Shown here: in pieces, positions 1,596-62,215 of the stretch | How the letters are laid out: each line of letters begins with the position of its first letter | How positions within the stretch are numbered: position 1 is the first letter of the stretch | Origin: an archaeon | GTDB lineage: Archaea; Nanobdellota; Nanobdellia; SCGC-AAA011-G17; GW2011-AR17 | Direction: 5' to 3' | NCBI GenBank assembly: GCA_043814545.1 | Contig: JBDRJY010000007.1 | Location: 6,819-70,818 of the forward strand | Length of the DNA: 64,000 bases | Position numbers and translations under genes: made by a program | The notes under the pieces: generated by a model | Seen by the model: only the letters and a program-made list of their open reading frames with translations | The model's database searches: none | What the model was told of the DNA's origin: nothing

Positions 1596-1618
1596 GGTTT
1601 TTGCCTTCGGCTGAAGGG
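1596..1618 (+). promoter_or_regulatory. intergenic hairpin motif copy 1: GGTTTTTGCCTTCGGCTGAAGGG
   Basis: Lies 29 nt 3' of the stop of 1647..1898(-). It is followed (in minus-strand sense) by a TTTAAAAA box about 25 nt before the ATG of scpB. Confidence 0.55.
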
Positions 1619-1646
1619 TTTAAATCTACTGGTTAGTGGACAAAAA

Positions 1647-1898
1647 TTATTCAACAAATTCTCTAAAAATTTTATAACTTTTAAGTTTTACTGCATGTAA
1701 TAATTGTGATGGATATATTAGTGTATAAGTAACAAAACCTAAATTACCTTTAATCCCATTTTTTTGATATTCTTCTATATCACTCCCATAAGATTCTAAA
1801 TCTAAAGAGTCAATTGTATCACAATTATGGCTGCGATACGTTGTCAAAATTTTATGAGCCAATTTAAATCCATCAACAAATTTCTCTCGATTTGGCAT
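1647..1898 (-). CDS. hypothetical protein
   Basis: 83-aa ORF with its own upstream motif and TATA-like box. No recognisable motif. Confidence 0.35.
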   Translation of the reverse strand: MPNREKFVDGFKLAHKILTTYRSHNCDTIDSLDLESYGSDIEEYQKNGIKGNLGFVTYTLIYPSQLLHAVKLKSYKIFREFVE

Positions 1899-1969
1899 TA
1901 TAATTTATTATTGGAAAAGTTATCTTTAAAAATATTATGCATCTTATCCACAAATCAAATAATTAAAAA

Positions 1970-3460
1970 CTAATCAATAGGATATCTTAAGATAGCAGCA
2001 ATCCCACCTAATTGTTCTAACTGCTGACCTTCCATTGTATCAGTAGAAATAATTTTAACTTCGGTCCGAGAATTCTCTGCATCATCTTCCATTTTTTCAA
2101 TATAATCCTCATCTAAAGATTCAGATAATAATAAAGTTTCAACCGCAGCCATTTCCATAACTTTTTCAACTTGTTTTTTACCATAACTAACACGTTTATC
2201 ATCAGTTGACAACAATTTAAAAAATTTTTCCAAAATCTTTTTCTCTTCTATGATAGCCTCTTTGGACAAAATCTCCTGACTTTTGTTAACAAGCTCTTTC
2301 AATCCAAAATCGCCAGTATAACTTAAATCTTGTAAACCTAAGACTTTTAATTTAATTTGGTTATTCAAAAAATCGCCATTGTAAAAAGTTTCTTTGGTAG
2401 GCCCGGGACCGCCAATCAAAATACCTTTCAAAGTTTTCATCTCAAGAAACTCTTTTTGTACTGTCTCTGCTATACGCTTGTAAAAATCTTTAGCTGCACC
2501 TTCCCTGATACGAGCAAACCTTTGCGCACTGTTATGAACAATAAGACCTTCAGCAACAAAGTTTTTGTTAGCAACAGAGATGTCTATAAGATTAATCTTA
2601 ATTTGTTCATCAACTTCAATCTTTTTAATTTCTTTACCAGAACCATCACGGCCCAACAATAAATCACCAACTTGCAACTCTTCACTCGCTTTGGTCAAAC
2701 CGTCTAACAAGAAAAACAAATGATCTTTAGAAGCAGTAACAATTTCTTCAACATGAATTTTGTATATGTTTTCCGTAGGCTTAACCCATTTATCTAAAAC
2801 TTCGGAAGGTTTCAACGTTTTAGATTCAAAATCGTAACTTAAAACTTCATCACCAACTTCAACTTCTTCCAAAGAAAGAAACTGACCGTCAGCCATTGCA
2901 ATCTCAGTGTCAAATGCTAAACACTGCCCACCTGCCCTAGTTTTACCAGGCACACCCGAAGTCAAAGTTTGAAGTTCAACTATGTTCGTACCTTTCAACA
3001 AACCGATAGTAGCTTCACGCCTGTCAACCACAATCAAACCATACGTTTCTTTCACGTCAAGCATTTCACGTAAAATGTCTAACTGAAAAGTTTGGTCACA
3101 TCTATAGATTCGATTATTAATCGCTTCAGGCGGTTCTATGCTCCATACTTGTACATCTAGCTTACCTTCCTTGTCAGTAGCATTCCCTGCAAACGCTGCA
3201 AGACCATTGTCAGGAGTTTTCTTGAACAACCTTAAATGCCTAATCATCCGTTCAAGAGAATCAATAACATGTTTTTGTGTAGTTTTATCTTTAATATTAG
3301 TAGCAGTACCTTGCTCTTGCCCTAAATGATTAATAATTTTATTAATATCATAACCAGCAGGAATGTATACAGTAACTAGTTCTGTATGCCTACCACGAAT
3401 ATTTTCAAGTTTACGTACGAACTTTTTCAGTTTATGTTTCTGTTTAGGGTCAAGAACCAT
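1970..3460 (-). CDS. prf1: peptide chain release factor aRF1 (eRF1 family) carrying a mini-intein
   Basis: N-terminal domain has the TATNIKD (NIKS-like) motif. GGQ sits at residues 177-179, followed by a Cys-started insert that ends in HN. The host sequence then resumes as SAQRFARIRE, the conserved GGQ-S-xxRFxRxR context of eRF1/aRF1. Confidence 0.85.
   Translation of the reverse strand: MVLDPKQKHKLKKFVRKLENIRGRHTELVTVYIPAGYDINKIINHLGQEQGTATNIKDKTTQKHVIDSLERMIRHLRLFKKTPDNGLAAFAGNATDKEGKLDVQVWSIEPPEAINNRIYRCDQTFQLDILREMLDVKETYGLIVVDRREATIGLLKGTNIVELQTLTSGVPGKTRAGGQCLAFDTEIAMADGQFLSLEEVEVGDEVLSYDFESKTLKPSEVLDKWVKPTENIYKIHVEEIVTASKDHLFFLLDGLTKASEELQVGDLLLGRDGSGKEIKKIEVDEQIKINLIDISVANKNFVAEGLIVHNSAQRFARIREGAAKDFYKRIAETVQKEFLEMKTLKGILIGGPGPTKETFYNGDFLNNQIKLKVLGLQDLSYTGDFGLKELVNKSQEILSKEAIIEEKKILEKFFKLLSTDDKRVSYGKKQVEKVMEMAAVETLLLSESLDEDYIEKMEDDAENSRTEVKIISTDTMEGQQLEQLGGIAAILRYPID
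2531..2923 (-). other. mini-intein (131 aa, no homing-endonuclease domain) inserted between Q179 and S of the GGQS motif of aRF1
   Basis: Block A CLAFDTEIAMADG, with Cys1 encoded by TGT at 2921-2923. Block B IVTASKDHLFFLLDG (T..H). Block F/G NLIDISVANKNFVAEGLIVHN, with the terminal Asn encoded by AAC at 2531-2533. The +1 Ser is encoded at 2528-2530. Confidence 0.75.
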
Positions 3461-3694
3461 GGTTTTTCACATGAATAGGAGAATATTTAAGCTTTTTGAT
3501 AGTTAAAAAAATATAATACTGATGTCCGAAGTCTAAGCTTCAACAGAAAGGCGTCATGATCCGAAGACCACTCAACCGGATATCTATATCCACTTCAATT
3601 CTCCCACCAATACTGCAAATAGATCTATGACTTTTTCATATTTAAAATTTTCTATAAAGAAAAGTTTTTATATTGCATTACTAAATGTGTTATC

Positions 3695-4489
3695 ATGAAG
3701 AAACGTACAGTACGTTTGATTAGTATTGCAATCATTCTAATTCTCCTTTTAACATTCAGTTCAGCTCTTGTTTTGAAAATAGGTATCTTTTCAGTCTTAA
3801 ATTTTTTTGATGAAGAAGAAAAAATCTCACCTTACTCAGAATTAGTGCAAGACTTTGTTGAAGATTGTATAGAAAATACTGCTCTTGAAGGTATTACTTT
3901 CATAACAAAGGAAGGCAAAACTGTTGTCATTGATGATGAAAGTTTAGACAAAAAATCTAACCTTTCAATTAAAGAAGATTTAGAATTAGAAATTAGTAAC
4001 TATATTGACGAATATTTACCATTATGCACAAACGATTTTGTAAAATTCTTAAACATGGATGTGACAGCTAACGATGAACCGCACACTATTGTTACAATAA
4101 ATGAGAAAGAAGTTATAATTTTAACAAAATGGCCTACTCATGTTAAATACGGCAATAATCTTGATACAATTTCTGAATATGAAATAACATTAGACATGAA
4201 ACTAGGTTTTATCCACAACTTAATCACTGACATTTTCACAACTAAAGAAGAAGTTTGTTTTGAATGTTTACAAGCCGAAAGCGAAAAAGAAAATGTTTAT
4301 GCAAGCTTTTCTTTGTATAAAGAGGATGAGATTATTATTACTATCCTTGAAGAATCCGGTTTATTAGACAAACTACCTTTTACTTACATGTTCAGAATTA
4401 AACATAAGTTAAACGAAAAAGAACAAGAATATTTGGCTAACTATACATTGTTAAAAGATTTAGCACTTACACAAGACGCTCTTGCTTGA
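3695..4489 (+). CDS. hypothetical N-terminally anchored (signal/TM) protein
   Basis: N-terminus MKKRTVRLISIAIILILLLTF is a charged segment followed by a hydrophobic helix. The rest is acidic. Confidence 0.45.
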   Translation: MKKRTVRLISIAIILILLLTFSSALVLKIGIFSVLNFFDEEEKISPYSELVQDFVEDCIENTALEGITFITKEGKTVVIDDESLDKKSNLSIKEDLELEISNYIDEYLPLCTNDFVKFLNMDVTANDEPHTIVTINEKEVIILTKWPTHVKYGNNLDTISEYEITLDMKLGFIHNLITDIFTTKEEVCFECLQAESEKENVYASFSLYKEDEIIITILEESGLLDKLPFTYMFRIKHKLNEKEQEYLANYTLLKDLALTQDALA

Positions 4490-4880
4490 ATTCCCCGATT
4501 AATTCTTTGAATGCCAAACCTTTTTTCTTAGCAAAATCAAAAGTTAAAACAAAATGTTTACCTTTGGACTTAGGAACTTCCGCAAGCGGTACAAAAAACC
4601 AACCTTCATTATCAAATCTAACCGCAAGCCACGGTTCAGCGCCAAACGTTGTTGCAAACTCATTTAACTGGTTAAGCTCTTCTGCGTTAAAATATTTCTT
4701 TTTATCTTTGATAGCTTTACATTCTAAAGCTAAAGTTTTAGTACCGTTACTTGCTATAAGGTCTGGCGAGGGTTTTTGGGTTGAGCCACTGCCAGCAGAT
4801 CTTACAACTGCCCATTCTTGAGTGTCCCAAAGTAAATGAAACAATTCTCTTTCCGCCCTACTACCTTTCACTTTTGACAT
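4467..4880 (-). CDS. hjc: Holliday junction resolvase Hjc
   Basis: KGSRAERELFHLLWDTQEWAVVRSAGSG, followed by the PD-(D/E)xK nuclease motif PDLIA..LALECK. The 137-aa size and alignment fit archaeal Hjc. Confidence 0.75.
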   Translation of the reverse strand: MSKVKGSRAERELFHLLWDTQEWAVVRSAGSGSTQKPSPDLIASNGTKTLALECKAIKDKKKYFNAEELNQLNEFATTFGAEPWLAVRFDNEGWFFVPLAEVPKSKGKHFVLTFDFAKKKGLAFKELIGEFKQERLV

Positions 4881-5013
4881 ATTATTTTAGAAAGGCAAAA
4901 GAGTATATAAAATCTGTTGAATCATAAAAGAAAGTTCCTAAGATTTTCAAGAATTAAAACATTTTTACTTTGTTTTTCAAATACCATTTTATTCAAAATA
5001 AAAAATAAAAAAA

Positions 5014-5184
5014 TTAAAGGTCTCGTGCCTTTACTGTGCTTCTTTTATTTGCTTTAGCTCTTGCTGCTGCTTTTTGGATTAAACCAACTACTTCATCACT
5101 CAAAGCACTTGCAAAATCACTTGAAACGTTCATGCCATCAGCATGTTCTTTAATTTTGCTTCTTACTACAACTAAATCTGCCAT
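5014..5184 (-). CDS. small histone-fold-like DNA-binding protein (56 aa; not in ORF track)
   Basis: Translation is [56 protein letters not shown]. Its columns align with archaeal HMf-type histones (..[52 protein letters not shown]), but it ends right after the start of helix 3. A GGAGGT Shine-Dalgarno-like sequence lies 10 nt upstream of the ATG. Confidence 0.45.
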   Translation of the reverse strand: [56 protein letters not shown]

Positions 5185-5280
5185 TTTATCATTTACCTCC
5201 TTAAAATTGTTAGATAATATCTTTAATGAGTAAAAATACGGCAGTATTTAAATTTTTCGACAAATATAGAGTTTAAAGGC

Positions 5281-6330
5281 TTATTTCGTCCAAATTATCA
5301 AGAAATAAGCTTGTCCACCTATTTTAATCACTCGTTCTTCAACTTTCTTAAACTGCTTAGAATAATATAAAAGAAGTTCTTTCTTAGGCGAAACCATAAT
5401 AATCCTACCTTTTTTCTTCAAAATCATTTCAGCTTGTCTAAACAAATCTTCGTACAAATGTTTAACTTTCTTTTCAGGGTTAGAAGGCGACGGGAACGGC
5501 GGATTTGTCACAATACAATCAATTGACTCTTCCTTAAACTTAATATCTAACCAATCAATCGAAGTTTTACTCAAATTAATTTCTTTCCTAATACCAGCAA
5601 GCTTCATATTAATCTCAGTGTTACGTATATCAGAAAGCAAATTATCATAACCATATATATTAGATTTAACATCCCGAATTTTCTTATCTAAACCAGGGAA
5701 AGATAATATTTTTTCAAAATGTCCTCTCGGGACCTGTTTTGCATATTGTGCAGCTTCAATAACAATAACTCCATCTTTAACAAAAGGGTCAAGAAGAATT
5801 TTTTTCTTATCCCAGTTAGCCAACCTTACCATTGCATAAGCTAAACAAGCGTTAATAGATTGCCTGTGAAACCTAATCCGATAATCTCTTTTATGCAAAT
5901 CATCATATTTCAGGTAACCGATTATACAAACGTCATCCAAAAGTTCAACAAGCACAGTCGTTTTTGGTTTCTTCAAATTAACTTTAAAACCTTTTTTAAA
6001 AATTATCGCACCCACAGCTTCTTCAATCTCTCGCGTAGCAAAAGACAAATCTGTTTTACGAACACATCTGGCAACAAAAGGCTGTTCAAACTTAAAATCT
6101 AATTTCTCAACTTCTTCCTCAATTTGTTTTAAGGTTTGAAATTTGAACTTGTGAACAAACTCATACACTTTAATCATAGAACGAGACATGTAAACAAATT
6201 TATCTATATCCTTAGTCTCAAACATTACACGACCCTTTTTAATTTTTTTAGCATTAGAACCAAGAATTTCTTTAATCTCTTTAATTAAAACATCTTCAAT
6301 TCCAGGCAAAGTTACAGCTATATATTTCAT
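5281..6330 (-). CDS. THUMP-domain tRNA (guanine-N2)-methyltransferase (Trm14/TrmN-like)
   Basis: N-terminal THUMP-like region followed by a class I methyltransferase with the VTNPPFP (NPPF/Y) motif typical of N2-G and N6-A methyltransferases. Confidence 0.65.
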   Translation of the reverse strand: MKYIAVTLPGIEDVLIKEIKEILGSNAKKIKKGRVMFETKDIDKFVYMSRSMIKVYEFVHKFKFQTLKQIEEEVEKLDFKFEQPFVARCVRKTDLSFATREIEEAVGAIIFKKGFKVNLKKPKTTVLVELLDDVCIIGYLKYDDLHKRDYRIRFHRQSINACLAYAMVRLANWDKKKILLDPFVKDGVIVIEAAQYAKQVPRGHFEKILSFPGLDKKIRDVKSNIYGYDNLLSDIRNTEINMKLAGIRKEINLSKTSIDWLDIKFKEESIDCIVTNPPFPSPSNPEKKVKHLYEDLFRQAEMILKKKGRIIMVSPKKELLLYYSKQFKKVEERVIKIGGQAYFLIIWTK

Positions 6331-6366
6331 TCAATAATAGAGTATAACTACTACTTATAAAATTTG

Positions 6367-13021: not shown

Positions 13022-13375
13022 TTATCTTACTCTAAAGACATCTCCTGCCCCTATTTCTATTTCAGGTTTATCAGGATCATAGAATTTATGGTTTTTTCTT
13101 GGTTCCATGTTTGTAAAAAGAGTCATACGAGATGTTACAAGAAATTTATCTCCTTGTGAATATAAAGTATAACCATTAACATCACGAACATCAAAATCTT
13201 TTAATTTAGGATAAACTTTCATAGGATCAAAGTCAGGATTTAAATCTAAAAATGCAGGTACTAACCAACCATATAAAGTTTGGTCACGCCAATCAGAATG
13301 ACTTTCAGTTAAAACGTCAAACAATTGTTCAAGTGGTGATTTTTCACGGATTTTTAATTTCAAAATCGAGCTCAT
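13022..13375 (-). CDS. hypothetical protein (possibly part of the sugar-modification cluster)
   Basis: 117-aa ORF lying between the epimerase and surface-protein genes. No diagnostic motif recognised. Confidence 0.35.
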   Translation of the reverse strand: MSSILKLKIREKSPLEQLFDVLTESHSDWRDQTLYGWLVPAFLDLNPDFDPMKVYPKLKDFDVRDVNGYTLYSQGDKFLVTSRMTLFTNMEPRKNHKFYDPDKPEIEIGAGDVFRVR

Positions 13376-20227: not shown

Positions 20228-20250
20228 CGGATTTTTGGCTTGCAACCAAT
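20228..20250 (+). promoter_or_regulatory. weak variant motif copy (CGGATTTTTGGCTTGCAACCAAT)
   Basis: Between the FMN-binding gene stop (20261) and the start of the pilin-like operon (20189). The T-run is conserved but the stem is degenerate. Confidence 0.3.
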
Positions 20251-20260
20251 ATAAAAATTA

Positions 20261-20825: not shown

Positions 20826-20849
20826 GGTTTTTGCCTTACGGCTTAAAAG
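20826..20849 (+). promoter_or_regulatory. motif copy 2: GGTTTTTGCCTTACGGCTTAAAAG
   Basis: 24 nt 3' of the tfb stop. A TTTTATATTTTT TATA-like box starts 6 nt beyond it, about 25 nt before the ATG at 20785. Confidence 0.55.
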
Positions 20850-21796: not shown

Positions 21797-21900
21797 TTTT
21801 TTTTGCCTCCAGAGGTGTTTATTTTACTTCAAAACAACAATATTTAAATACTAGATTAGAAGTAGTATATAAACCTTTCGGAAGCTTTATATAAAAAACA

Positions 21901-22281: not shown

Positions 22282-22436
22282 TTTATGTGTCGAAGGAAAC
22301 AGGATTGGTTTATAAACGTTTTGTTTTTGAAAAATAAACTCAAAAAACCTCTAATACAAAACGAAAACCCTAAAACGTAACATTTAAATATAGACACAAT
22401 TTCTATCCAACTTATTAAAGAGGTAAATTTGAAAAA

Positions 22437-23712: not shown

Positions 23713-23735
23713 GGTTTTTGCCTTCGGCTTTTCCG
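23713..23735 (+). promoter_or_regulatory. motif copy 3: GGTTTTTGCCTTCGGCTTTTCCG
   Basis: In the divergent ParA(-)/LAGLIDADG(+) intergenic region. Confidence 0.55.
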
Positions 23736-23792: not shown

Positions 23793-24416
23793 ATGTATTC
23801 AAAAGACTTGTTTTATTTAATTGGAGTAATTTATGGAGATGGACATATTAGGCATGGACCTAAATCAAAAAGTGATCCTTCACTTCATTATGGAATTGCT
23901 ATAGATATTTCTGATATTAATTTTTTAAGAGAAGAGATTCTTCCTTTATTTCAAAAATTTACTAATACTAAAGCTCAAGTAAAAATAAGAACATTTGAAA
24001 ATCGAAAAACAAGAGGTTGTTTAGTTGTAAGTTGTAAAAAATTCTATAAACTTTTAACAGAAGAAATACAAACACACAAAGGACCAAAGACAAGAGATAT
24101 AGATATTTCTCCCGTAATAAAAGCTGCTTCAATGGAATTAAAAAAAGAATTCATTGCTGGATATTTTGATACTGATGGAGGTTTTAGAGGTAAAGTTATT
24201 GGTATTACTACTAACAATAAAAAATTTCAAGAATTTTTCTATCAAACTGTAACAGAAACTGGAATTCGTTGTAGTTATGAAAAATGGTTTAACAAAAAAT
24301 ATCAAAAAGACTATTATGGTGTTAGAATAAAAATTGGCAATATCGATAAGTTTTTAAAGACCTATAGATTACGAAACTTTGAGAAGTTAGCTAAAATAAA
24401 AGCTAAATTTTCTTAA
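23793..24416 (+). CDS. free-standing double-motif LAGLIDADG homing endonuclease-like protein
   Basis: Two LAGLIDADG motifs: LFYLIGVIYGDGHI and FIAGYFDTDGGF. 207 aa. It is not embedded in an intein or in an obvious intron. Confidence 0.7.
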   Translation: MYSKDLFYLIGVIYGDGHIRHGPKSKSDPSLHYGIAIDISDINFLREEILPLFQKFTNTKAQVKIRTFENRKTRGCLVVSCKKFYKLLTEEIQTHKGPKTRDIDISPVIKAASMELKKEFIAGYFDTDGGFRGKVIGITTNNKKFQEFFYQTVTETGIRCSYEKWFNKKYQKDYYGVRIKIGNIDKFLKTYRLRNFEKLAKIKAKFS

Positions 24417-24417
24417 C

Positions 24418-24535
24418 GCGGGGGTGCCGGAGTGGTCAAACGGGCCAGAAATTAACAATAATTGTTGTTAGTTGGTCATGCTTAGGACCTGGTGGCTTAG
24501 TGCCTACGCAGGTTCGAACCCTGTCCCCCGCACCA
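24418..24535 (+). tRNA. tRNA-Leu (anticodon TAG), class II, with ~31-nt intron (24450..24480). CCA encoded
   Basis: Acceptor GCGGGGG/CCCCCGC plus ACCA. Long variable arm TGGCTTAGTGCCTAC. T-arm CAGGTTCGAACCCTG. Removing 24450-24480 gives the anticodon stem-loop CCAGA-CTTAGGA-CCTGG with U33, TAG and G37. The intron boundary can slide by about 1 nt. Confidence 0.7.
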
Positions 24536-26269: not shown

Positions 26270-27424
26270 ATGGTATCGAAAAAGAAAGCTAAGAAAACAT
26301 TATGGATATTTTCAGTTGCTGCGTTCTTGAACGATGTAGGTTCAGATATGATAATGCCAATATGGCCGTTGTTCGTTACAACTTTTCTTGGCGCAGACTT
26401 AACAATTTTAGGTTTGTTGGACGGGTTAGGTAAAGCTTTTGTTTCAATTTCTCAAGCAGTTTCAGGTTATGTTTCTGACAGGATTAGAAAACGTAAAGTT
26501 TTTGTCTGGGTAGGTTATCTTTTCGCAGGATTCGCAAGGGGCGGTTACGCTTTGGTAAACACTTGGCCTTGGTTAGTACCATTAAAGATTTTGGATAGAA
26601 GCGGTAAAATACGTGACGCACCACGTGACGCTATCATTGCAGACATTAGTAAATATAAGTCTAGAGGGAAATTCTTTGGCATATTAGAAATGATGGATAA
26701 TTTGGGAGCCATAGTAGGTATTTTAATTTCTATTGCGGTTTTCAGTTTGTTAGGTTTCAAAAAATTATTTTTGTTAGCAGCAATCCCTTCTTTGATAGCA
26801 GTAATTTTAATAATATTTTTTATTAAAGAAAAACACGATGGTAAAATCTTTAAAGGATTAAAAATAAAAAACTTAGACTTTAACTTTAAACTATTTTTAT
26901 TTGTTAGCGGAATATTTGCATTGGCAAACTTTAGTTATTCTTTTTTATTAGTATTTGCAAACCAGTTCGGGATACCAACAACTTTTGTTCCAGTATTTTA
27001 TTTACTGTATACAGTTGTTGCTACAATAGCAGCAATACCTTTTGGTAAAGCTTTGTTAAAATTAGGAAGAAGATCAACAATAACAATATCTTTTGCCTTA
27101 TTTGCAGTAATGTGTTTAGGTTTTATTTTGATTAACCAAACATGGATGTTATACATTTTGTTTATTTTGTACGGTTTACATTTAGCTTCATTAAACGTTT
27201 CACAAAAAACAATTGTAAGCGAGTTAGCGCCTAAGAAATATCGTGCAAGTTCTTTAGGGTTATACCAAATGGTGATTGGGATTTTGGCGTTGCCTTCGTC
27301 GGTAATAGCAGGCGTTTTATGGGAAAAGGTTGCAATGTGGGCACCATTCGCTTTAGCGTTGGGTTTGACGAGCATTGCTATCGTGGTATTATCTTTTGTT
27401 AATTTTAAGAACCACGATTCGTAA
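26270..27424 (+). CDS. MFS transporter
   Basis: 12-TM topology, with a G-x-x-x-D-R/K-x-G-R-K/R-like loop (GYVSDRIRKRKV) after TM2. Confidence 0.7.
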   Translation: MVSKKKAKKTLWIFSVAAFLNDVGSDMIMPIWPLFVTTFLGADLTILGLLDGLGKAFVSISQAVSGYVSDRIRKRKVFVWVGYLFAGFARGGYALVNTWPWLVPLKILDRSGKIRDAPRDAIIADISKYKSRGKFFGILEMMDNLGAIVGILISIAVFSLLGFKKLFLLAAIPSLIAVILIIFFIKEKHDGKIFKGLKIKNLDFNFKLFLFVSGIFALANFSYSFLLVFANQFGIPTTFVPVFYLLYTVVATIAAIPFGKALLKLGRRSTITISFALFAVMCLGFILINQTWMLYILFILYGLHLASLNVSQKTIVSELAPKKYRASSLGLYQMVIGILALPSSVIAGVLWEKVAMWAPFALALGLTSIAIVVLSFVNFKNHDS

Positions 27425-41106: not shown

Positions 41107-41129
41107 TGGTTTTTGCCTTCGGCTGGAAT
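41107..41129 (+). promoter_or_regulatory. motif copy 4: GGTTTTTGCCTTCGGCTGGAATG
   Basis: Abuts the 3' end of tRNA-Val(-), 58-80 nt upstream of the 39049..41049 start. Confidence 0.55.
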
Positions 41130-44733: not shown

Positions 44734-44756
44734 GATTTTTGGCTTTGCCTTTAAAT
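44734..44756 (+). promoter_or_regulatory. motif copy with flipped stem: GATTTTTGGCTTTGCCTTTAAAT
   Basis: Between tRNA-Thr(-) and the start of 41261..44632. The stem is GGC-TTT-GCC rather than GCC-N-GGC. Confidence 0.45.
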
Positions 44757-46136: not shown

Positions 46137-46159
46137 GGGTTTTGCCTGCGGCTGAAAAG
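46137..46159 (+). promoter_or_regulatory. motif copy 5: GGGTTTTGCCTGCGGCTGAAAAG
   Basis: Sits between two divergent TATA-like boxes: CTTTTATAAAG for rps15(-), and TTATAAAT at 46162-46169 for the plus gene at 46191. Confidence 0.55.
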
Positions 46160-48291: not shown

Positions 48292-48399
48292 TAGCCCCGC
48301 GCGGATTCGAACCGCGGTCTCCGCCTTTCCCTTGAAAGATATCAATTAAGACATCATCCATCCAAAGGGCGAAATGATTGGCCACTACACTACGGGGCT
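48292..48399 (-). tRNA. tRNA-Gln (anticodon TTG) with canonical 35-nt intron after position 37
   Basis: Reverse complement is AGCCCCG...GTAGTGGCCAATCA..TCGCC-CTTTGG[ATGGATGATGTCTTAATTGATATCTTTCAAGGGAA]A-GGCGG-AGAC-CGCGG-TTCGAAT-CCGCG-CGGGGCT-A. The exon CCCTT pairs with intron AAGGG, as in a bulge-helix-bulge. Confidence 0.75.
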
Positions 48400-52610: not shown

Positions 52611-53006
52611 CTAAAACTCTTCCATATCTTCAATAACTTCTTTTACCATACCTTTTCTCTTTAGAACAGAAACTTGATTAGGTTTATACTTGTAAACAAC
52701 ATCACCTTTCTCGTCACCGCCCAAATCCCAAGGCTTAATAAGTAAAGTATCACCTTCACGCACCCATAACCGCCTTTTCAACCTGCCAGGTATACGACAA
52801 ATCCTCATTCTACCATCAAAACATCTTACTCTCATTCTAGAACCACCAAGTCTAGACTCTAAAATCCCAAGAACTTCGTTATCTCTAGGCATCCTAACAC
52901 GAACAAACTCTGGTTGTGGTTCAAGTGTACCTTTCTGTTTCTTTTTCTTATCAAATTTCCTGGGTGGTGGCATTAGAATAAAGAATTGTGGATAGTTTAT
53001 AAACAT
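52611..53006 (-). CDS. eif1a: translation initiation factor 1A (aIF-1A)
   Basis: ..GILESRLGGSRMRVRCFDGRMRICRIPGRLKRRLWVREGDTLLIKPWD.. is the eIF1A S1/OB core. The real start is probably the internal Met (MPPPRK.. or MPRDNE..). Confidence 0.8.
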   Translation of the reverse strand: MFINYPQFFILMPPPRKFDKKKKQKGTLEPQPEFVRVRMPRDNEVLGILESRLGGSRMRVRCFDGRMRICRIPGRLKRRLWVREGDTLLIKPWDLGGDEKGDVVYKYKPNQVSVLKRKGMVKEVIEDMEEF

Positions 53007-53019
53007 TCGGTTTTAGCTT

Positions 53020-54309
53020 TCAGCTTAAATGTTTAGGTATTTTTTCGCCAATTACAAGTTGTTCAAACTGTTGATGCTCTCTTATAACATGCGAAAAACC
53101 ATTTGTATCAATTAAAACTTCTGTTGGTAATAACATAGAATTATAATTAGATTGCATTGACGTACCATATGCACCAACACAACTTATCACAACTAAGTCG
53201 TCAGGTTTTGCTAAAGCTAACTCTCTCGGTAACATGTGCCCAATTTCATCACGAGTAAAAACGTCGCCAGATTCACATAAGTTACCCGCAACAACAACGT
53301 TAGATTTTTTTCTTTCACCATTAGCAATAACAGCTATCGGATGGTAAGCACCGTAAGCCATAGGACGAACCAAATTGTTAAACCCTGCATTAATCATAAG
53401 AAAAGTCATCTCAGACGTATTTTTCAAACCTAAAACTTCTGTAATCAACGAACCTGAATCTGCTAAAAAATATCTTCCTGGTTCAAGCTCAAACTGAACT
53501 TTACCATACTCTTTTTTAAATTTCTTCAAACGTTCAAGTAACCGAGGAGCAAACTCGTGCAAGTTAAATTCTTTCTCAGTTAAAGAGTTATATACTGTAG
53601 GAAAACCGCCACCGAGGTTAACAAAATCTAAATTTTCAAATCTTTTTGCAATGCATAAACTTTTGTCAACAATGTTTAACCATCTATCAAGATCATTACC
53701 AGAACCGGCGTGCGTGTGAACACCTTTAATATTTAAGCTATGTTCCTGGGCAATTTTCTGTAACTCATCAATTTGTGTATGATAAATGCCATGCTTTGAA
53801 TAAGGTCCAGCAGTTGTACAAGTTAAATGATGACCAGTGCCCATTCCAGGATTAATACGCACAGCAATGTTGGGATTACGAAATTTCATTTTACCATAAC
53901 GTTCAATATCATCTAACGAACCAAGGTTAACCATAATATTATTATCAAACATATATTCTAACGTATCATGCGAACCATCATCACTTGTGAAAATCATCTC
54001 TTCAGGCTGATAACCTGTCTTAAGGCAACGCCAAACTTCGCCCTGAGAAACAGCGTCAATCATAAGACCTTCACTTTTTATTATTTTAAGTATAGCACCA
54101 AGAGTGTTAGCTTTACAAGCATAACGTAAATTAATGCCAGGAAGTTCACGTTTAAAATCTTGACACCTTTCACGAATAATATTTTCTTCATAAACAAACA
54201 AAGGAGTGCCGTGTACTATTGCTAATTCAGAAACATAATTTAAATTATCTTTAAACAAATCAGACCGTAATTCTCCATAAACTTTACTCGTTACTTTCTT
54301 CGTCAACAT
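53020..54309 (-). CDS. PLP-dependent diaminopimelate decarboxylase-family (fold type III) decarboxylase
   Basis: YACKAN (PLP-Lys), GMGTGHH, EPGRYF and CESGD motifs. 429 aa. LysA, as opposed to ODC or ADC, cannot be decided from sequence alone. Confidence 0.65.
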   Translation of the reverse strand: MLTKKVTSKVYGELRSDLFKDNLNYVSELAIVHGTPLFVYEENIIRERCQDFKRELPGINLRYACKANTLGAILKIIKSEGLMIDAVSQGEVWRCLKTGYQPEEMIFTSDDGSHDTLEYMFDNNIMVNLGSLDDIERYGKMKFRNPNIAVRINPGMGTGHHLTCTTAGPYSKHGIYHTQIDELQKIAQEHSLNIKGVHTHAGSGNDLDRWLNIVDKSLCIAKRFENLDFVNLGGGFPTVYNSLTEKEFNLHEFAPRLLERLKKFKKEYGKVQFELEPGRYFLADSGSLITEVLGLKNTSEMTFLMINAGFNNLVRPMAYGAYHPIAVIANGERKKSNVVVAGNLCESGDVFTRDEIGHMLPRELALAKPDDLVVISCVGAYGTSMQSNYNSMLLPTEVLIDTNGFSHVIREHQQFEQLVIGEKIPKHLS

Positions 54310-55322: not shown

Positions 55323-55430
55323 TTATAAGCGTTTGGTTCTCTGCGGACCGCCTTTTTTATACACTCTCACCTTACGTTTCAACTTTTTCTCTTTCTTAGA
55401 TTTTCTTTTATCATAAGAGGGTTCTTCCAT
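55323..55430 (-). CDS. 35-aa highly basic small protein (not in ORF track). Possible small r-protein-like
   Basis: Hand translation is MEEPSYDKRKSKKEKKLKRKVRVYKKGGPQRTKRL. Its own motif copy (55461-55477) and an ATTTAAG TATA-like box sit about 25-30 nt upstream of the ATG. This is the same promoter architecture seen at the neighbouring genes. Confidence 0.4.
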   Translation of the reverse strand: MEEPSYDKRKSKKEKKLKRKVRVYKKGGPQRTKRL

Positions 55431-55460: not shown

Positions 55461-55477
55461 GGTTTTTGGCTAACGCC
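55461..55477 (+). promoter_or_regulatory. motif copy with flipped stem: GGTTTTTGGCTAACGCC
   Basis: 13 nt 3' of the RPA-like gene stop, upstream of the 35-aa ORF. The stem is GGC-TAAC-GCC. Confidence 0.45.
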
Positions 55478-55489
55478 TGTAAGAAAAAC

Positions 55490-58274: not shown

Positions 58275-58832
58275 TTATACCTTTTTTTTATACCCTTTTG
58301 CAGCTAAAGTTTTAATCAACAATTCAACAGCTTCATGCAATTTTTTCTCTGAACGTGTACCCGTACAAACAATCTTACCATTACTAAACAATAGGAAAGT
58401 AGCTCTTGTATCAGGTAACTTATAAACCAGACCAGGGAACTGTTCCGGCTCGTATTCAGTATTAGGCAAGTTAATTGCTAACGAGTTCAAGTTAAGGTCA
58501 ATACCTATAGCACCAGATGCAACCATGTTCTGAACTTTACATACGGGGTTAATTGTTATTTTTATTTTAATTTTTTCTATATTTTTAATAATAGCTTCTA
58601 CAGATTCTTTCACTTTTGCCAAAGACTTAGCACCGGTACATACAACTTTACCTGAGCTAAATATCAAAGCAGAAGTTTTAGGATCTTTAATCCTCATAAC
58701 CAAACCTGGAAACTGTTCAGGGTTATATTCGGTGTTAGGTAATGTTTCAGCCAATTTCACCAATGGGATAGGCTGTCCTAAATATGTGGTAGCCACAATG
58801 TTTTGAATAATTACTTTTTTCTTTCCTGTCAT
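58275..58832 (-). CDS. tbp: TATA-box binding protein
   Basis: Two direct repeats (IQNIVATTYLG...GKVVCTGAKS / VQNMVASGAIG...GKIVCTGTRS). 185 aa. Confidence 0.9.
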   Translation of the reverse strand: MTGKKKVIIQNIVATTYLGQPIPLVKLAETLPNTEYNPEQFPGLVMRIKDPKTSALIFSSGKVVCTGAKSLAKVKESVEAIIKNIEKIKIKITINPVCKVQNMVASGAIGIDLNLNSLAINLPNTEYEPEQFPGLVYKLPDTRATFLLFSNGKIVCTGTRSEKKLHEAVELLIKTLAAKGYKKKV

Positions 58833-58987
58833 GTTTTTTGCCTCGCTTAAGGTAATTCTTTAAAAAGAAAGTTAAAAGTGTTTATAAAGGTATTTATAAA
58901 AGAAATTTTAGAATATAAAAGCTAATTCTTTAATATTTAAAGGAATTAGAGCTATTTGTCCTTATTTAGGAAATAAATTTTAGGGTT

Positions 58988-59009
58988 GGTTTTGCCTTTG
59001 GCTTTGATG
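58988..59009 (+). promoter_or_regulatory. motif copy 7: GGTTTTGCCTTTGGCTTTGATG
   Basis: 31 nt 3' of the ileS stop, about 155 nt upstream of tbp. Confidence 0.5.
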
Positions 59010-59039
59010 TTTGAAAATAGTGAATAAGGGACAAAAATA

Positions 59040-62000
59040 TTATTTCAAAATCTTAAAACTAACATTAAACATTTCACCTTTAATCATTTCTTTAGAACTA
59101 TGTTCAAACTCTTTACGTTCAAACACTAAAGATTTTGCACCAACTTTAATCATCATGTCATCTTTCCATTTATTCAATTCATAACCAGTTTGTATTGCTA
59201 ATTCTATTTCATCTGACTTTTCCAAACCTACTTTTTTTCTTAAATTCTGTACACGACGCATCAATTCTCTAGCAAACCCTTCAGCTTCTAACTCTTTATT
59301 CAATTCAGTGTCGATGTATAACACTCCACTTTTAAAATTAGCAGCAGTTAAGTTGGCAGGCAAAGTTTCTTTAACATGAATATGCGTCCTGTTCAATTCA
59401 AACTTGTCAACATTTGCAGAACCTTCCTTATAAATTTTTTTCATAACATCGTCGTTTAACATTTGTTTAATTTGAGGAGCATCAGCTTTGAAATCTTTAC
59501 CTATTGTGCCAGGGTTCATTGTAATTTCTACGCGAGCACCTTCAACTTCACTTTCAAACAACAATTGTTTAATATTAGTCTGACGCAAAACAATACTTTG
59601 CAATTTTTCTAACGAACCTAAAACATCTTTGTTCATTGTAAGAACTGTAACTTTTGACAAAGGCCATCTTACACTTATAATAGCTTTTTCCCGAGCAGAT
59701 AATATTGTAGCAATAACATCTTTCGCATGCTCAAAATTTTCTTCTAATTCAACAGAAACATAACTTGCCTCAGCCTTAGGCCAATCTAACAAATGCACAG
59801 ATTCTTCCGAAGCACCTAAACCATTTTCTTTCAGTTTCAAGTACAACTCTTCAGAAATCATCGGCATAACAGTTGCAAGCATTGTAATAATTTTCAACAA
59901 AACTTCATGTATAACATCAATCACAATCTGTTTTTGTTTAGGAGTACCAGTTGCAGCTTTATCACGTACTAACTGAATATAAGTTCTACTCAGTTCTAAA
60001 AACAAATCTTCAATCTGTAAAGGAACTTCGTTCAGCTGATACTTGTTAAACTTGTTAGTAACATCGTTAAGAGTAGAATGTAATTTTGATAAGATGTAAA
60101 CTTCTTCAACTTCCAACTTAGTTTTATCAATAGGGTTCGGTTTTACATTATTAGTTTTTACTAAATCAATAAGAAAGTTTACTAAGTTAGAAAGAATGAA
60201 AATATTTTTATGCTTAAGTTTCAAATCATCAAAGTTATAGTTCATGTCTACACCAGGATTAGCAGCACCAATTGCATAATACCTAAACGTGTCAGCACCA
60301 TACTTTTCAATAACTTCATAAGGAGAAATAATATTTTTTAACGACTTGCTCATCTTACGCCCTTCAGAATCGTTAATGAACCCGTGCATGTAAACAGCTT
60401 TATACGACGGTTGTTTGAACGCTACCATGCTTAAAGCCATTAAAGAATTGAACCAACCACGAATTTGATCTTTACCTTCAAGGATTAAATCCGGCTGTCC
60501 CAGTTTATCATAAAGTTCAGTCTTTCCTGGGTAACCAAGGGTCGCCCAAGGTGCTGCGCCTGAATCTAACCATACATCTAAAATATCTTCAATCCTCGAC
60601 ATTTCTTTTCCACATTTACATTTGATTTTAACTTCATCAATCCACGGCCTGTGCAAATTTTCTAATTTCATTCCGGAAGCATCTTCAACTTCTTTTTTCG
60701 AACCTAAAACTTTATGCTGACCACATTCACAAACCCAAATCGGTAAAGGTATACCCCAAAATCTTTGACGAGAAATGCACCAGTCTTGAAGATTTCGCAA
60801 CCATGAATCAAACCATTTATTACCTGCCCAATCAGGAACCCAAAGAATTTTTTTGTTATGCTCAATCATTTCACTTTTCAAGTTTTCAACTGCAAGGAAC
60901 CACTGGTTCGTAGCCCTAAATACAACAAGAGACTTACAGCGCCAACATCCAGGATACTCGTGTACGACCGGCGTTGAAGCTACTAAAAAACCTTTCTTAT
61001 CAATAGCTTCGATAAATTTAGGATCATCTTTCTTTGCAACTAAACCTTTGAAAAGCCCCATTTCTTCAGGGAACACACCATGTTCATCAATCAAATTGAA
61101 AGCAGGAATACCAAACTCTTTACCGACTTCATAATCTTCAGCACCACAACCCGGCGCCATGTGTACAAGGCCTGAACCTGACAACACGTCAACATACTTT
61201 TCTGACATTACAACCGAATACGCTTTTTCATTTTCGTCAAAAGTTTTTTGGTGGTAAGGTATTTCATCAAAGAACGGATGTTTGTACCGAGTTTTATACA
61301 AATCTAAACCTTTCAACTCTTCAACAATCTTATATTTGTGACCAGCAACCATTTGTATCACAGCACCAGCCAACGCTTTTGCCAAAATCCAAATTTCTCC
61401 AGTATCTTCAATCTTAACTTTAACATAATCATATTCAGGATGCGCCATTACACCCATGTTAAACGGAATAGTCCACGGCGTTGTCGTCCAAACAATTAAG
61501 AAAGTATTATCTTCGCCAATAACAGGAAGTTTTACAAAAATAGAATCATCTTTAACATTCTCATATTCTAATTCATGTTTTGCGAGAGCAGTTGCACAAC
61601 GCGGACACCAAGTCATACTTTTTTTACCTTGATACAAATAACCATTTTTGTTTGCCAAAGATAAAGCGTACCATGCACCTTCAATGTATTCGGTTTTAAC
61701 TGTCATGTACGGATTTTCCCAATCCATCCATATACCTAACCTCTTAAAATCTTTAATCATGGGATGCATTTTAGATATTGCATACTTTTCACACTCTTCG
61801 ATAAACTTTTTCATGCCAAGCTTTTCAAGAATTTCTTTTTTATTTTTCAAACCTAACTCTTTTTCTACAGAAACTTCGATAGGAAGACCATGCATGTCAA
61901 ATCCTGGTTGGTCCCAGACATTAAACCCATTCATTCTTTTAAAACGGATTAAGGAATCTCTAAGGGCTTTCCCCCAAGCGTGACCGATGTGTATAGCACC

Positions 62001-62132
62001 TGTAGTGTAAGGTGGACCGTCAAGATAAAAGAATTTTTTACCAGATTCAGTTTTAGCTTTAGCTTTCTGATAAATTTGATTATCATCCCAAAATTTAAGG
62101 ATTTTCTCTTCGGTTTTAACCACGTCTTGCAT
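59040..62132 (-). CDS. ileS: isoleucyl-tRNA synthetase
   Basis: HIGH motif PPYTTGAIHIGHAWG. KMSKS motif RKMSKSLKN. Editing CP1 region. 1030 aa. Confidence 0.9.
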   Translation of the reverse strand: MQDVVKTEEKILKFWDDNQIYQKAKAKTESGKKFFYLDGPPYTTGAIHIGHAWGKALRDSLIRFKRMNGFNVWDQPGFDMHGLPIEVSVEKELGLKNKKEILEKLGMKKFIEECEKYAISKMHPMIKDFKRLGIWMDWENPYMTVKTEYIEGAWYALSLANKNGYLYQGKKSMTWCPRCATALAKHELEYENVKDDSIFVKLPVIGEDNTFLIVWTTTPWTIPFNMGVMAHPEYDYVKVKIEDTGEIWILAKALAGAVIQMVAGHKYKIVEELKGLDLYKTRYKHPFFDEIPYHQKTFDENEKAYSVVMSEKYVDVLSGSGLVHMAPGCGAEDYEVGKEFGIPAFNLIDEHGVFPEEMGLFKGLVAKKDDPKFIEAIDKKGFLVASTPVVHEYPGCWRCKSLVVFRATNQWFLAVENLKSEMIEHNKKILWVPDWAGNKWFDSWLRNLQDWCISRQRFWGIPLPIWVCECGQHKVLGSKKEVEDASGMKLENLHRPWIDEVKIKCKCGKEMSRIEDILDVWLDSGAAPWATLGYPGKTELYDKLGQPDLILEGKDQIRGWFNSLMALSMVAFKQPSYKAVYMHGFINDSEGRKMSKSLKNIISPYEVIEKYGADTFRYYAIGAANPGVDMNYNFDDLKLKHKNIFILSNLVNFLIDLVKTNNVKPNPIDKTKLEVEEVYILSKLHSTLNDVTNKFNKYQLNEVPLQIEDLFLELSRTYIQLVRDKAATGTPKQKQIVIDVIHEVLLKIITMLATVMPMISEELYLKLKENGLGASEESVHLLDWPKAEASYVSVELEENFEHAKDVIATILSAREKAIISVRWPLSKVTVLTMNKDVLGSLEKLQSIVLRQTNIKQLLFESEVEGARVEITMNPGTIGKDFKADAPQIKQMLNDDVMKKIYKEGSANVDKFELNRTHIHVKETLPANLTAANFKSGVLYIDTELNKELEAEGFARELMRRVQNLRKKVGLEKSDEIELAIQTGYELNKWKDDMMIKVGAKSLVFERKEFEHSSKEMIKGEMFNVSFKILK

Positions 62133-62192
62133 ACGAAATTGGTTATGAGGCTTTATTTATATAATTTACCGTTTTAATATTGGGAAGGTTAA

Positions 62193-62215
62193 AGTTTTGC
62201 CTTACGGCTGAAAGG
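62193..62215 (+). promoter_or_regulatory. motif copy 8: AGTTTTGCCTTACGGCTGAAAGG
   Basis: Immediately 3' of the stop of 62217..62606(-). A TTATATAAAT box follows about 22 nt before the ileS ATG. Confidence 0.55.

Follow-up and report, generated by a model that had tools for sequence, protein, structure and literature searches.

In phage G4 and plasmid ssiA, DNA mini-hairpins act as signals for primase, and the RNA polymerase of phage N4 uses them as a promoter signal (PMC13037366). The accepted stems are CC-GG and GC-GC, while CG-CG and GG-CC are not accepted, and the accepted loops include GTTA and the GBAA class (PMC13037366). The RNA version is far less stable, with a Tm of 39 C compared with 76.5 C for the DNA, and the stability of the motif is missed by nearest-neighbour models (PMC13037366). 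A second close system is formed by the bacterial REPs, which are repeats of 20-40 nt or more with a 5' GTAG or CGTC tag. Canonical REPs exceed about 100 copies per genome, are frequently arranged as inverted pairs (BIME/REPIN), and have a cognate RAYT (Y1/HUH transposase) gene. In the REP/RAYT model, an asymmetric conserved tag by the hairpin is read on single-stranded DNA.

Herein, a dispersed element was analyzed in a window of 64,000 nucleotides, the window being the whole stretch of archaeal DNA under study. Judged by its sequence, the element is a true repeat family, apparently restricted to one lineage of an uncultured DPANN-type archaeon. The explanation that we favor, with a probability of roughly 40%, is a REP-like mini-hairpin repeat that is specific to one strand, marks the boundaries of transcription units and would be read as single-stranded DNA.

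Copies of the element in the window

A sequence-only reading had described about ten recurrent copies of a literal consensus, GGTTTTTGCC-N3-4-GGCTGAAAGG, with a conserved TGAAAG tail. The consensus has zero exact matches in the window, and TGAAAGG is not conserved. The relaxed core TTTTGSC-N3-4-GSCT was matched 10 times, compared with 0.14 matches expected from shuffles, and all 10 matches were on the plus strand. The stricter pattern TTTTGCC-N3-4-GGC was matched seven times on the plus strand and zero times on the minus strand. The conserved unit on the plus strand is GG-T4-5-G-S-C, a loop, and G-S-C-T. Read on the minus strand, which is the gene sense, the unit of about 18 nt is an A, a 3-bp G/C stem with a GNA, GNNA or AAA loop, and the tail AAAA(A)CC.

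A covariance model of the element was trained on the copies. Nine genuine copies scored between 27.9 and 38.8 bits, one extra copy was found as a match at 53005-53037 (24.7 bits, E ~1e-3), and all remaining matches in the window scored at most 17 bits. The clear gap between the copies, at 24.7 bits or more, and this background indicates that the family is real. Nine of the copies described earlier hold, far above chance; the one at 20228 is only a degenerate trace, and the copy at 53009-53025 is added. The intergenic location was also borne out, as nine of the 10 pattern matches and the extra model match fall within the non-coding part that makes up about 8% of the window; this extra copy, at 53009, overlaps a stop codon. 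Over the 64-kb window and about 40 kb of a relative, a copy is met roughly every 4-6 kb. DNA scans of public collections returned chance-level matches only.

All ten copies are read on the minus strand. The sequence AGCC-GAA-GGC-AAAAACC is found three times. At 1596..1612 (38.7 bits), it lies 37 nt past the stop of an unlisted 83-aa ORF (1647-1898), and the ScpB TATA box TTTAAAAA follows 15 nt downstream. At 23713..23729 (34.1 bits), it occupies the divergent gap between a plus-strand LAGLIDADG gene and the minus-strand ParA gene; the ortholog in L130 (2047-2064) has the loop GTAA and a 105-aa gene inserted directly after the tail. At 41108..41124 (32.4 bits), it starts 6 nt past the 3' end of tRNA-Val, with the operon of a 666-aa surface protein downstream.

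Four further copies share the same stem. The copy AGCC-GTAA-GGC-AAAAACC at 20826..20843 (38.8 bits) lies 30 nt past the TFB stop, after runs of T4 and T6, and the CC of its tail merges with CCGAATA-TTTTATAT, the promoter in front of the FMN-binding gene. An identical sequence is present in the JGI contig L133. The copy AGCC-GCA-GGC-AAAACCC at 46137..46153 (33.8 bits), with an identical counterpart in L125, is flanked by two divergent TATA boxes as had been reported, namely CCCGAAAC-TTTTATAA toward S15 and TTATAAATAA toward a 268-aa plus-strand gene. The copy AGCC-AAA-GGC-AAAACC at 58988..59003 (27.9 bits) is located 37 nt past the ileS stop, after a T5 run, with TBP downstream. The copy AGCC-GTAA-GGC-AAAACT at 62192..62209 (34.5 bits) follows the stop of a 129-aa gene by 8 nt and precedes the ileS TATA box by 27 nt; it is kept in L003 and missing from L001 and L002.

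Two copies carry the swapped stem. AGGC-AAA-GCC-AAAAATC at 44734..44750 (32.7 bits) is downstream of tRNA-Thr and its T5 run, and its ortholog at 5759-5775 of L125 reads GGC-GAA-GCC-AAAAACC. AGGC-GTTA-GCC-AAAAACC at 55461..55478 (31.8 bits) is 12 nt past the stop of an OB-fold gene, and the TATA box of the 35-aa ORF and aIF2-beta operon, TTTAAGTT, follows after 1 nt. Its L126 ortholog has the loop GTGA and different upstream genes. The new copy at 53009..53025, AGCT-GAA-AGC-TAAAACC, has a U-A closing pair, its loop holds the TGA stop codon of a decarboxylase gene, and the eIF-1A promoter CCGAATG-TTTATAAA is fused to its tail.

Three weaker matches were also recorded. The degenerate trace at 20228..20252 on the minus strand, GGTTGCAAGCC-AAAAATCC-GAAGA-TTTTATAT, went undetected by the covariance model at E<=10; it retains the tail and promoter junction, GCCAAAAATCC-GAAGA-TTTTATAT, but has a broken 5' stem. 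At 22348..22370 on the plus strand, a decayed copy (CCTCTAATACAAAACGAAAACCC) runs in the opposite orientation and faces a plus-strand LSM gene. Its ortholog in L130 is intact (GGC-AAA-GCC-AAAACCC, 34 bits). The doubtful match AGGC-AAC-GCC-AAAATCC at 27279..27295 on the minus strand (17.2 bits, E 0.12) is antisense within the coding sequence of an MFS transporter and is probably due to chance.

Hairpin pairing and conservation in relatives

The short inverted repeat claimed earlier is real and covaries. Across 17 distinct element sequences, 51/51 stem cells pair, two-sided changes occur at all three pairs, and no G-U pair is found. Four stem types are present: GCC/GGC, GGC/GCC, CCC/GGG and GCT/AGC. 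The stem covariation score was reached by no shuffle. Non-complementary arms were absent from the model-free pattern matches (0/10; p ~0.004 given independently varying arms). The covariation could partly reflect templated (quasi-palindrome) mutation instead of selection. The loop-closing pair is C-G in 16/17 sequences and U-A in one, and the second stem pair is C-G in 12 and G-C in five. These stems are the accepted CC-GG and GC-GC types (PMC13037366). The loop is GAA, GCA, GTAA, GTTA or GTGA in 12 sequences and AAA in five, the latter starting with A where the motif has G. Every loop ends in A, which holds for the A-tail strand only. Since the complement would have TTC or TTAC loops, only the A-tail strand fits the mini-hairpin rules. 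A high stability of the element hairpin would be expected from the literature (PMC13037366); nearest-neighbour folding of the element as DNA gives just -1.6 to -3.4 kcal/mol.

In a relative about 88% identical in DNA, the elements are retained at orthologous sites. The core identity over five ortholog pairs is 92%, compared with 75% in the flanks, and 30/30 stem positions are unchanged, with differences only in the loops and the tail. This conservation is counted as a sign of selection on the element. The same relative also displays element gain, decay, opposite-orientation copies and neighboring gene-sized indels. Its ScpB-upstream copy has lost the 5' stem at a synteny breakpoint, and elsewhere in this relative the sole inverted pair flanks a 177-aa gene, about 700 nt apart. 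A relative at 81% IleRS identity has zero elements in 23 kb, with the ileS promoter conserved.

Gene-sized indels begin directly next to an element at the ParA, aIF2-beta and eIF-1A loci, and five others are element-free. As about one third of the spacers carry a copy, this adjacency may be chance. One paralogous pair of copies has 57 nt of flank in common; the flanks are unrelated in most paralog pairs.

Placement between transcription units and its explanation

The copies are single and lie in AT-rich spacers that separate transcription units. Typically, a copy follows the stop codon and T-run of the preceding gene and borders the A-tract/BRE/TATA region of the next gene on its upstream side. 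The boundary position proposed in the sequence-only reading agrees with this result, most copies having a stop codon or tRNA end before them and a TATA box after them, and its view of a general, non-pathway-specific intergenic element is supported. The uniform plus-strand T-run that it reported stands for the 10/10 pattern matches, but not for the decayed opposite copy at 22348-22370 or for the two copies in the relative that are flipped with the local gene. The uniform orientation in the window mirrors the minus-strand bias of its genes. Within same-direction gene gaps, nine copies are sense and one is antisense. Five loci occupy gaps of divergent genes, in which they sit between promoters or upstream of them, and transcription from either neighbor is not expected there. 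This speaks for a DNA-level rather than an RNA-level element.

The favored mini-hairpin would work as follows. Supercoiling in the wake of RNA polymerase, the opening of a promoter or replication would leave the spacer single-stranded for a short time. In this state, the A-tail strand would fold as a very stable DNA mini-hairpin, and d(AGCCGAAGGCAAAAACC) would be expected to be more structured than either its complement or the corresponding RNA. A putative protein would recognize the hairpin together with the 3' A4-5CC tail. The outcome would be an orientation-specific punctuation mark or insulator that separates units and carries no core promoter signal; the insulator role is suggested by position. 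The family would also spread, decay and mark rearrangement junctions in the manner of small dispersed repeats, and these repeat-like dynamics are partly shown.

It is conceivable, though we doubt it, that the element instead works in duplex DNA as an upstream promoter element or regulator site. A lineage-specific protein would bind the palindrome and A-tract directly upstream of BRE/TATA and help or orient the assembly of the initiation complex. At 14/16 loci, a same-direction gene with a TATA-like box is found 1-46 nt downstream. In five copies, a CCGAA-N-TATA promoter (CCGAA-N-TTTWTAW) begins with the terminal CC of the element, and four of the five intergenic promoters of this type in the window have an element tail. 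The element and promoter stay joined at 55461 and at 2719 of L126 despite the different upstream genes, and the eIF-1A promoter has an upstream copy in both lineages at unequal distances. The CC tail running into these five promoters indicates that the promoter link is real, yet not obligatory, so that the earlier idea of a promoter role is kept in part. The tail-to-TATA spacings are about 1, 5, 5, 5, 6, 10, 12, 15, 27, 32, 32, 35 and 46 nt. The TATA-like box stated earlier is indeed there, on the minus (gene) strand, with a spacing of 1-46 nt instead of 5-25 nt.

This variable spacing speaks against a promoter element, and just 9/27 of the window spacers of at least 48 nt are occupied. The ileS and ParA promoters are conserved without an adjacent element. 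Of two other copies, one occupies a convergent gap and lacks a downstream gene, and the second is placed between two genes in antisense. A homodimer tolerating GCC or GGC should also take mixed arms, and none occur; the 3-bp arm is below the typical half-site length. The narrower proposal of a BRE-like position, or any fixed-position part of the core promoter, was rejected by the same spacing and by the occupancy of about one third of the spacers. The 81% relative has kept the ileS TATA region but has no element, and the conserved ParA promoter of the closer relative is separated from its element by the 105-aa gene.

A role in RNA, at the 3' end of the preceding transcript, is unlikely. Here a GNRA-type hairpin with an A-rich tail would define, process or protect the end of an mRNA or tRNA precursor, or assist termination. 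Ten of the 16 loci are indeed 0-67 nt past a same-direction stop codon or tRNA end, with one stop codon inside the loop, and the convergent-gap copy has an upstream gene only. The region upstream of ileS in L001 lacks the element, and the upstream gene there is divergent. Of four copies examined as RNA, three also have a sense strand that folds better than shuffles (z about -1.9 to -2.6), whereas the antisense strand does not. However, the five divergent-gap loci have no same-direction upstream gene. A T5-6 run, the usual archaeal terminator, precedes the element in about six copies, and many transcripts may thus terminate before they reach it. Downstream of the hairpin there are A's and not U's, and the lack of G-U pairs in 51 cells is not favorable to RNA. 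Triloops of the GAA and GCA kind have no special stability in RNA (PMC13037366). A covariance-model scan of Rfam, including CRISPR repeats, matched no family to the elements even at E<=1 and reported only four tRNAs at threshold.

A replication-linked single-strand signal, for instance a landmark that excludes SSB or serves priming on the lagging-strand template, with an orientation that follows the fork and not transcription, is very improbable: the shared orientation of 14/16 loci and the role of mini-hairpins as primase and N4 RNA polymerase promoter signals (PMC13037366) would suit it, but two opposite copies within 700 nt of a forward copy follow the local gene, confinement to spacers is left unexplained, and the GC skew flips at plus-strand genes, so no replication direction can be read from it in the window.

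For the strand-specific mini-hairpin, a reader protein was also searched for. A Pfam scan that covered almost every gene of the window, together with the genes inserted in the relative, detected no HUH, Y1 or other transposase, and no recognizing or mobilizing protein was found in the small portion of the genome covered. We consider it possible, with considerable doubt, that a cellular DPANN chromosome uses d(C-GNA-G) as a dispersed, selected, strand-specific signal that is read on transient single-stranded DNA together with the A4-5CC tail. Candidate readers would be an HUH-type nuclease or recombinase, or a promoter-insulating boundary factor. If this is true, a mini-hairpin so far found only at single sites on phage and plasmid single-stranded DNA would be in chromosomal use. 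If the reader were an HUH-type nuclease or recombinase, the gene-sized indels next to copies would be accounted for.

Comparison with known systems

A MITE with target-site duplications was rejected. The unit is about 18 nt and not about 50 bp or more, neither terminal inverted repeats nor duplications at presence/absence sites are seen, and the flanks of most paralog pairs are unrelated, although one pair of copies shares flanking sequence.

The archaeal BRE/TATA signals resemble the element in that it lies upstream of TATA boxes and points at them, with its CC joining a CCGAA-type BRE in five copies. It differs in that its spacing is not fixed, most promoters are without it, promoters are conserved without it, and it has a covarying hairpin where the BRE has none. 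Intrinsic and oligo-T terminators likewise place a GC hairpin just past stop codons with a homopolymer run beside it. The run of the element on the gene strand is A4-5CC, however, with the T-run on the opposite strand ahead of the hairpin, and separate T5-6 runs are often found upstream.

Like the bacterial REP/RAYT repeats, the element is short, dispersed and extragenic. It is a GC-rich imperfect palindrome within AT-rich spacers, often a few nucleotides past the upstream stop codon, it is lineage-specific with quick gain and loss, and it has an asymmetric conserved tag by the hairpin. Unlike REPs, its stem is only 3 bp in the unit of about 18 nt, and in the alignment its tag is a 3' AAAA(A)CC and a 5' A, with no GTAG or CGTC. 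Its copies are single, without BIME or REPIN pairing, and almost all are oriented like the genes. Within the DNA covered, a RAYT-like gene was not seen, and the host is a DPANN-type archaeon.

The motif d(GC-GNA-GC)/d(GC-GNNA-GC) of the phage G4, St-1 and alpha3 origins, plasmid ssiA and the phage N4 promoters (PMC13037366) shares the C-G closing pair with the element. The second pair is G-C or C-G in both, and the loops GAA, GCA, GTAA and GTTA are common to them (PMC13037366). Both are strand-specific, with the G...A loop on one strand only, and the GC-GTTA-GC core of the 55461 copy (GGC-GTTA-GCC) is the same as that of the St-1/alpha3 origin mini-hairpin. The phage and plasmid mini-hairpins are single functional sites on single-stranded DNA read by primase or N4 RNA polymerase, whereas the element is a dispersed chromosomal family of about one copy per 6 kb that adds an A4-5CC tail.

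Detection and base pairing of the element

The literal consensus proposed in the sequence-only reading gave zero exact matches in the window. In a window pattern search, TTTTGCC-N3-4-GGC had seven plus-strand matches and no minus-strand match, and TTTTGGC-N3-4-GCC contributed three more. With S at both middle positions (TTTTGSC-N3-4-GSCT), 10 matches were found against 0.14 expected, all on the plus strand. The proposed intergenic placement was borne out, with 9 of the 10 pattern matches falling in non-coding DNA, which makes up roughly 8% of the window.

A covariance model was trained on nine window copies and one ortholog. The nine window copies scored 27.9-38.8 bits, and a new copy (53009) was recovered at 53005-53037 with 24.7 bits. 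A doubtful match within an MFS transporter gene scored 17.2 bits. The remaining matches, at 13 bits or below, were noise, and the top eleven matches were all on one strand. The copy proposed at 20228 went undetected by the model; its 5' arm is broken, and the tail and promoter junction are retained.

Read on the minus (gene) strand, the conserved unit is A-[3-bp stem]-[3-4-nt loop]-[3-bp stem]-AAAA(A)CC. The TGAAAGG tail described earlier corresponds to the 5' flank on this strand and shows no conservation. The window and a close relative together supply 17 distinct sequences. In these, 51 of 51 stem cells form Watson-Crick pairs, with no G-U or G-T pair, and all three stem pairs vary on both sides: the outer pair is G-C in 16 and C-G in 1, the middle pair C-G in 12 and G-C in 5, and the loop-closing pair C-G in 16 and U-A in 1. 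The observed covariation score was unmatched by any shuffle, and pairing fell to 35-37% when the partner column was shifted by one. Since the 17-sequence alignment had been fitted to the model, pairing was re-tested with the model-free pattern. None of its 10 matches had non-complementary arms, for which we calculate p of about 0.004 under independently varying arms. The element is a hairpin. An extended stem formed by the flanking T-run and A-run was rejected, because the base composition of the 5' flank differs among copies, from T-rich to A-rich. A long alternative hairpin with the upstream partner TTTTGTCC was also rejected; this partner lies near three copies only, and at one of them it falls in a flank shared with a paralog.

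The loops on the A-tail strand are GAA, GCA, AAA, GTAA, GTTA, and GTGA, while the opposite strand would have TTC or TTAC loops. A 2026 review of mini-hairpin DNA describes d(GC-GNA-GC) and d(GC-GNNA-GC) as extraordinarily stable, with a Tm of 76.5 C resting on two G-C pairs and a sheared G-A pair; the RNA form is far weaker, with a Tm of 39 C (PMC13037366). Accepted stems are GC-GC and CC-GG, in contrast to CG-CG and GG-CC, and the accepted loops are GBAA, GABA, and GTTA (PMC13037366). Judged by sequence, the variation of the element fits these rules on the A-tail strand only, since the closing C-G pair hardly varies, the pair next to it can be either C-G or G-C, and the majority of loops have the form G...A. 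Nearest-neighbour folding gave -1.6 to -3.4 kcal/mol as DNA and -2.8 to -5.3 kcal/mol as RNA, and the sense strand folds somewhat better than shuffled sequence. Because nearest-neighbour-type models fail to capture the motif (PMC13037366), the stability of the hairpin is taken from the literature.

Position, orientation, and promoters

The window has a GC content of about 32%, and nearly all of its genes are on the minus strand. It carries intron-containing tRNAs and genes for archaeal TBP, TFB, MCM, eRF1 with an intein, aIF2-beta, eIF-1A, ribosomal proteins S15, S3Ae, and S8e, ScpB, IleRS, and very large surface proteins. The IleRS matches a protein labelled "MAG: archaeon" at 100% identity; among named relatives, the nearest are Woesearchaeota, with about 55-57% identity. 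On these IleRS matches, the host is assigned as an uncultured DPANN-type archaeon.

Every window copy is upstream of a same-direction, minus-strand gene. The claim that most copies closely follow the preceding gene stands: 8 of the 10 lie 0-67 nt past a same-direction stop codon or tRNA end, a count that takes in copy 1596 given an unlisted 83-aa ORF (1647-1898). In copy 53009, the TGA stop codon of the decarboxylase gene is within the loop. Copies 23713 and 46137 occupy divergent gaps. Of 16 loci, divergent gaps account for five and a convergent gap for one. Only same-direction gaps inform on orientation, as divergent and convergent gaps match one neighbour either way. In same-direction gaps the element is oriented, with 9 sense copies versus 1 antisense copy, which follows a recent gene insertion.

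A TATA-like box does follow the element as had been stated, but its spacing is variable, at about 1-46 nt. In the downstream genes, TATA and ATG are often 21-27 nt apart, a distance that points to leaderless or short-leader mRNAs. In five copies (20826, 20228, 46137, 53009, and L124 7165 on a contig of the close relative), the terminal CC is the start of CCGAA-N1-3-TTTWTAW, and the element tail is present at 4 of the 5 intergenic promoters of this form in the window. A hairpin-less promoter form, AAAAAACGAAAGG-TTTATAT, is found in a more distant relative (81% IleRS identity). In the contigs of that relative (L001/L002), the ileS TATA region and the TBP upstream region are conserved despite the absence of the element. 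The suggested role as a BRE or fixed-position core-promoter element is excluded by the variable spacing, by the minority of promoters that carry the element, and by the conservation of promoters without it. A regulator acting upstream of promoters is unlikely; it stays a serious rival because a downstream promoter is present at 14 of 16 loci and five copies are fused to the BRE-like CCGAA.

Less likely than such a regulator is an RNA 3'-end element, which we consider improbable. A purely RNA-level role is unlikely in general, since copies in divergent gaps should escape transcription by both neighbours, no G-U pairs occur, and the loops obey rules established for DNA. A simple terminator is also disfavoured: on the gene strand the run consists of A, and separate T5-6 runs precede the element in about six copies. 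A replication-linked signal also ranks below the promoter-upstream regulator and is very improbable. GC skew was rejected as a guide to replication direction because it reverses where genes run on the plus strand.

Other features of the window were also recorded. The eRF1 gene (1970-3460, minus strand) is split by an intein with Hint/Intein_splicing domains at about aa 177-311. A LAGLIDADG homing-endonuclease ORF (23793-24532, plus strand) stops one base before an intron-containing tRNA (24418-24532), an arrangement retained in the relative (L130/L131). A 35-aa Lys/Arg-rich ORF, MEEPSYDKRKSKKEKKLKRKVRVYKKGGPQRTKRL (55323-55430, minus strand), closely follows the 55461 copy and precedes aIF2-beta; the relative has retained this ORF, whose start is about 21 nt past a TATA-like box. 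Upstream of TBP, the inverted repeat TTTCCTAAATAAGGACAAA (58955-58973, minus strand; L001 about 13190-13215) is conserved even in the 81% relative, although the neighbouring spacer sequence has diverged there, and it may be a TBP regulatory site. The TFB-S8e spacer holds a near-palindromic double promoter, TATATAAAGCTTCCGAAAGGTTTATATA (21866-21893), conserved in L130, in which two back-to-back TATA boxes flank CCGAAAGG. The eIF-1A start is probably the ATG at 52973 (minus strand; 120 aa, as in the relative) and not 53006, which places the TTTATAAA box 22 nt upstream of the start codon.

Conservation, turnover, and rearrangement in relatives

Contigs of the close relative (L003 and L124-L131, about 84-91% DNA identity) were reached through protein cluster members. 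The ortholog of copy 44734 is GGC-GAA-GCC and that of 46137 is identical. The loop changed from GTTA to GTGA at 55461 and from GAA to GTAA at 23713; at 62192 the hairpin is identical and the last two tail bases differ. Over these five ortholog pairs, core identity is 92% versus 75% in the flanks, and 30 of 30 stem positions are unchanged. The hairpin is under selection.

The copies also turn over. The copy facing the plus-direction LSM gene is intact in the relative (34 bits), and its window counterpart at 22348-22370, opposite in orientation to all other window copies, has decayed. The ScpB-upstream copy of the relative kept GAAGGCAAAAACC and lost its 5' arm exactly at a synteny break, and the copy after HicA has a mutated A-run. 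No copy was found by the covariance model in 23 kb of the 81% relative, where the top score was 13.6 bits.

Several gene insertions in the relative lie beside copies. Between the decarboxylase gene and eIF-1A, the relative has an inserted 177-aa gene with one copy on each side, the two in inverted orientation; of these, CCC-GCA-GGG is in the convergent gap, past the stop codon of the 177-aa gene and a T6 run. A 105-aa gene is inserted directly past the tail of the ParA-upstream copy, leaving it antisense between two genes. Another insertion, of a deaminase gene together with a 65-aa gene, lies about 20 nt upstream of the copy at aIF2-beta. The association of the element with rearrangement is only suggestive, because the window and the relative differ by gene-sized segments at five other places, all of them free of the element; the elements were thus rejected as obligatory indel junctions.

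Further features of the window and the relatives were noted. The 83-aa ORF (1647-1898, minus strand) between eRF1 and ScpB has flanks that match those of an unrelated 177-aa lipoprotein-like gene in the relative (L126 5190-5990), with 83% identity on the 5' side (1914-1977) and 79% on the 3' side (1596-1646). The shared 3' flank runs in the order T-run, hairpin TCCACT-AACC-AGTAGA, and element. Two different ORFs thus have cassette-like flanks in common. An insertion of about 1 kb with a 262-aa gene (L125 60-1110) lies beside the ortholog of tRNA 48292-48399, and a second copy of the 3' end of this tRNA, CCGCGCGGGGCTA, marks its boundary, as is characteristic of elements that integrate at tRNA genes. 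Several contigs of the relative (ends of L124, L128, L129, and L125) stop about 30-150 nt or less from an element, at tRNA-Val and upstream of ScpB, and the assemblies of the relative may break at element sites through strain-level rearrangement. A different intergenic repeat (…TTTAACATCG…CCTGTTAG…) occupies at least 4 spacers near MazE/ParE/Fic genes at L001 17665-22289.

Interpretation and comparison with known families

The 17-mer GGTTTTTGCCTTCGGCT matched at least 115 stretches in a genome-collection scan, nearly all of them matched once and belonging to unrelated genomes, for the most part bacterial; the matches listed did not include the window's own MAG. The archaeal matches inspected were due to chance, with 4 of 5 on the reported strand, as in AAGCCGAAGGCAAAAACC, which is apparently coding. 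The 20-mer TYCAGCCGAAGGCAAAAACC gave five single matches in a metagenome scan, all chance, on contigs of 40-56% GC. No Rfam family matched the elements. A solitary CRISPR-like repeat was rejected, with no array, no Rfam match, and no regular spacing, and so was a MITE, with no terminal inverted repeats and no target-site duplications. Pfam scans covering nearly every window gene and the genes inserted in the relative showed no transposase or HUH nuclease.

We tentatively read the element as a REP-like, strand-specific DNA mini-hairpin repeat at transcription-unit boundaries, with a probability of roughly 0.4. The spacer would become transiently single-stranded, and the hairpin would then be recognised together with the A4-5CC tail, presumably by a protein partner. 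The element may in this way have a boundary or insulator function.

To our knowledge, DPANN archaea have not been cultured, and next to nothing of their regulatory DNA has been mapped. A repeat that is under selection, oriented, and structure-forming, and that recurs about every 6 kb, offers a handle on how very compact DPANN transcription units are separated, and it may bear on the traffic of small accessory genes between close relatives. If the single-stranded mini-hairpin reading is true, a motif of phage and plasmid origins gains a chromosome-wide cellular role. If the element is merely a selfish REP-like repeat, it is still a lineage marker and an explanation for assembly breaks, and annotation as a promoter element would be unwarranted.

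Like REP elements, the element is extragenic, palindromic, near stop codons, and confined to one lineage; unlike canonical REPs, it has no GTAG/CGTC tag and no BIME pairs. REP-like palindromes have been reported in other archaeal phyla by a survey tool (PMC12306157). In the searchable literature, we found none that resembles the element and none in DPANN. The DNA mini-hairpin motif is known from the origins of phages G4, St-1, and alpha3, from plasmid ssiA, and from the promoters of phage N4, and the element follows the sequence rules of this motif.
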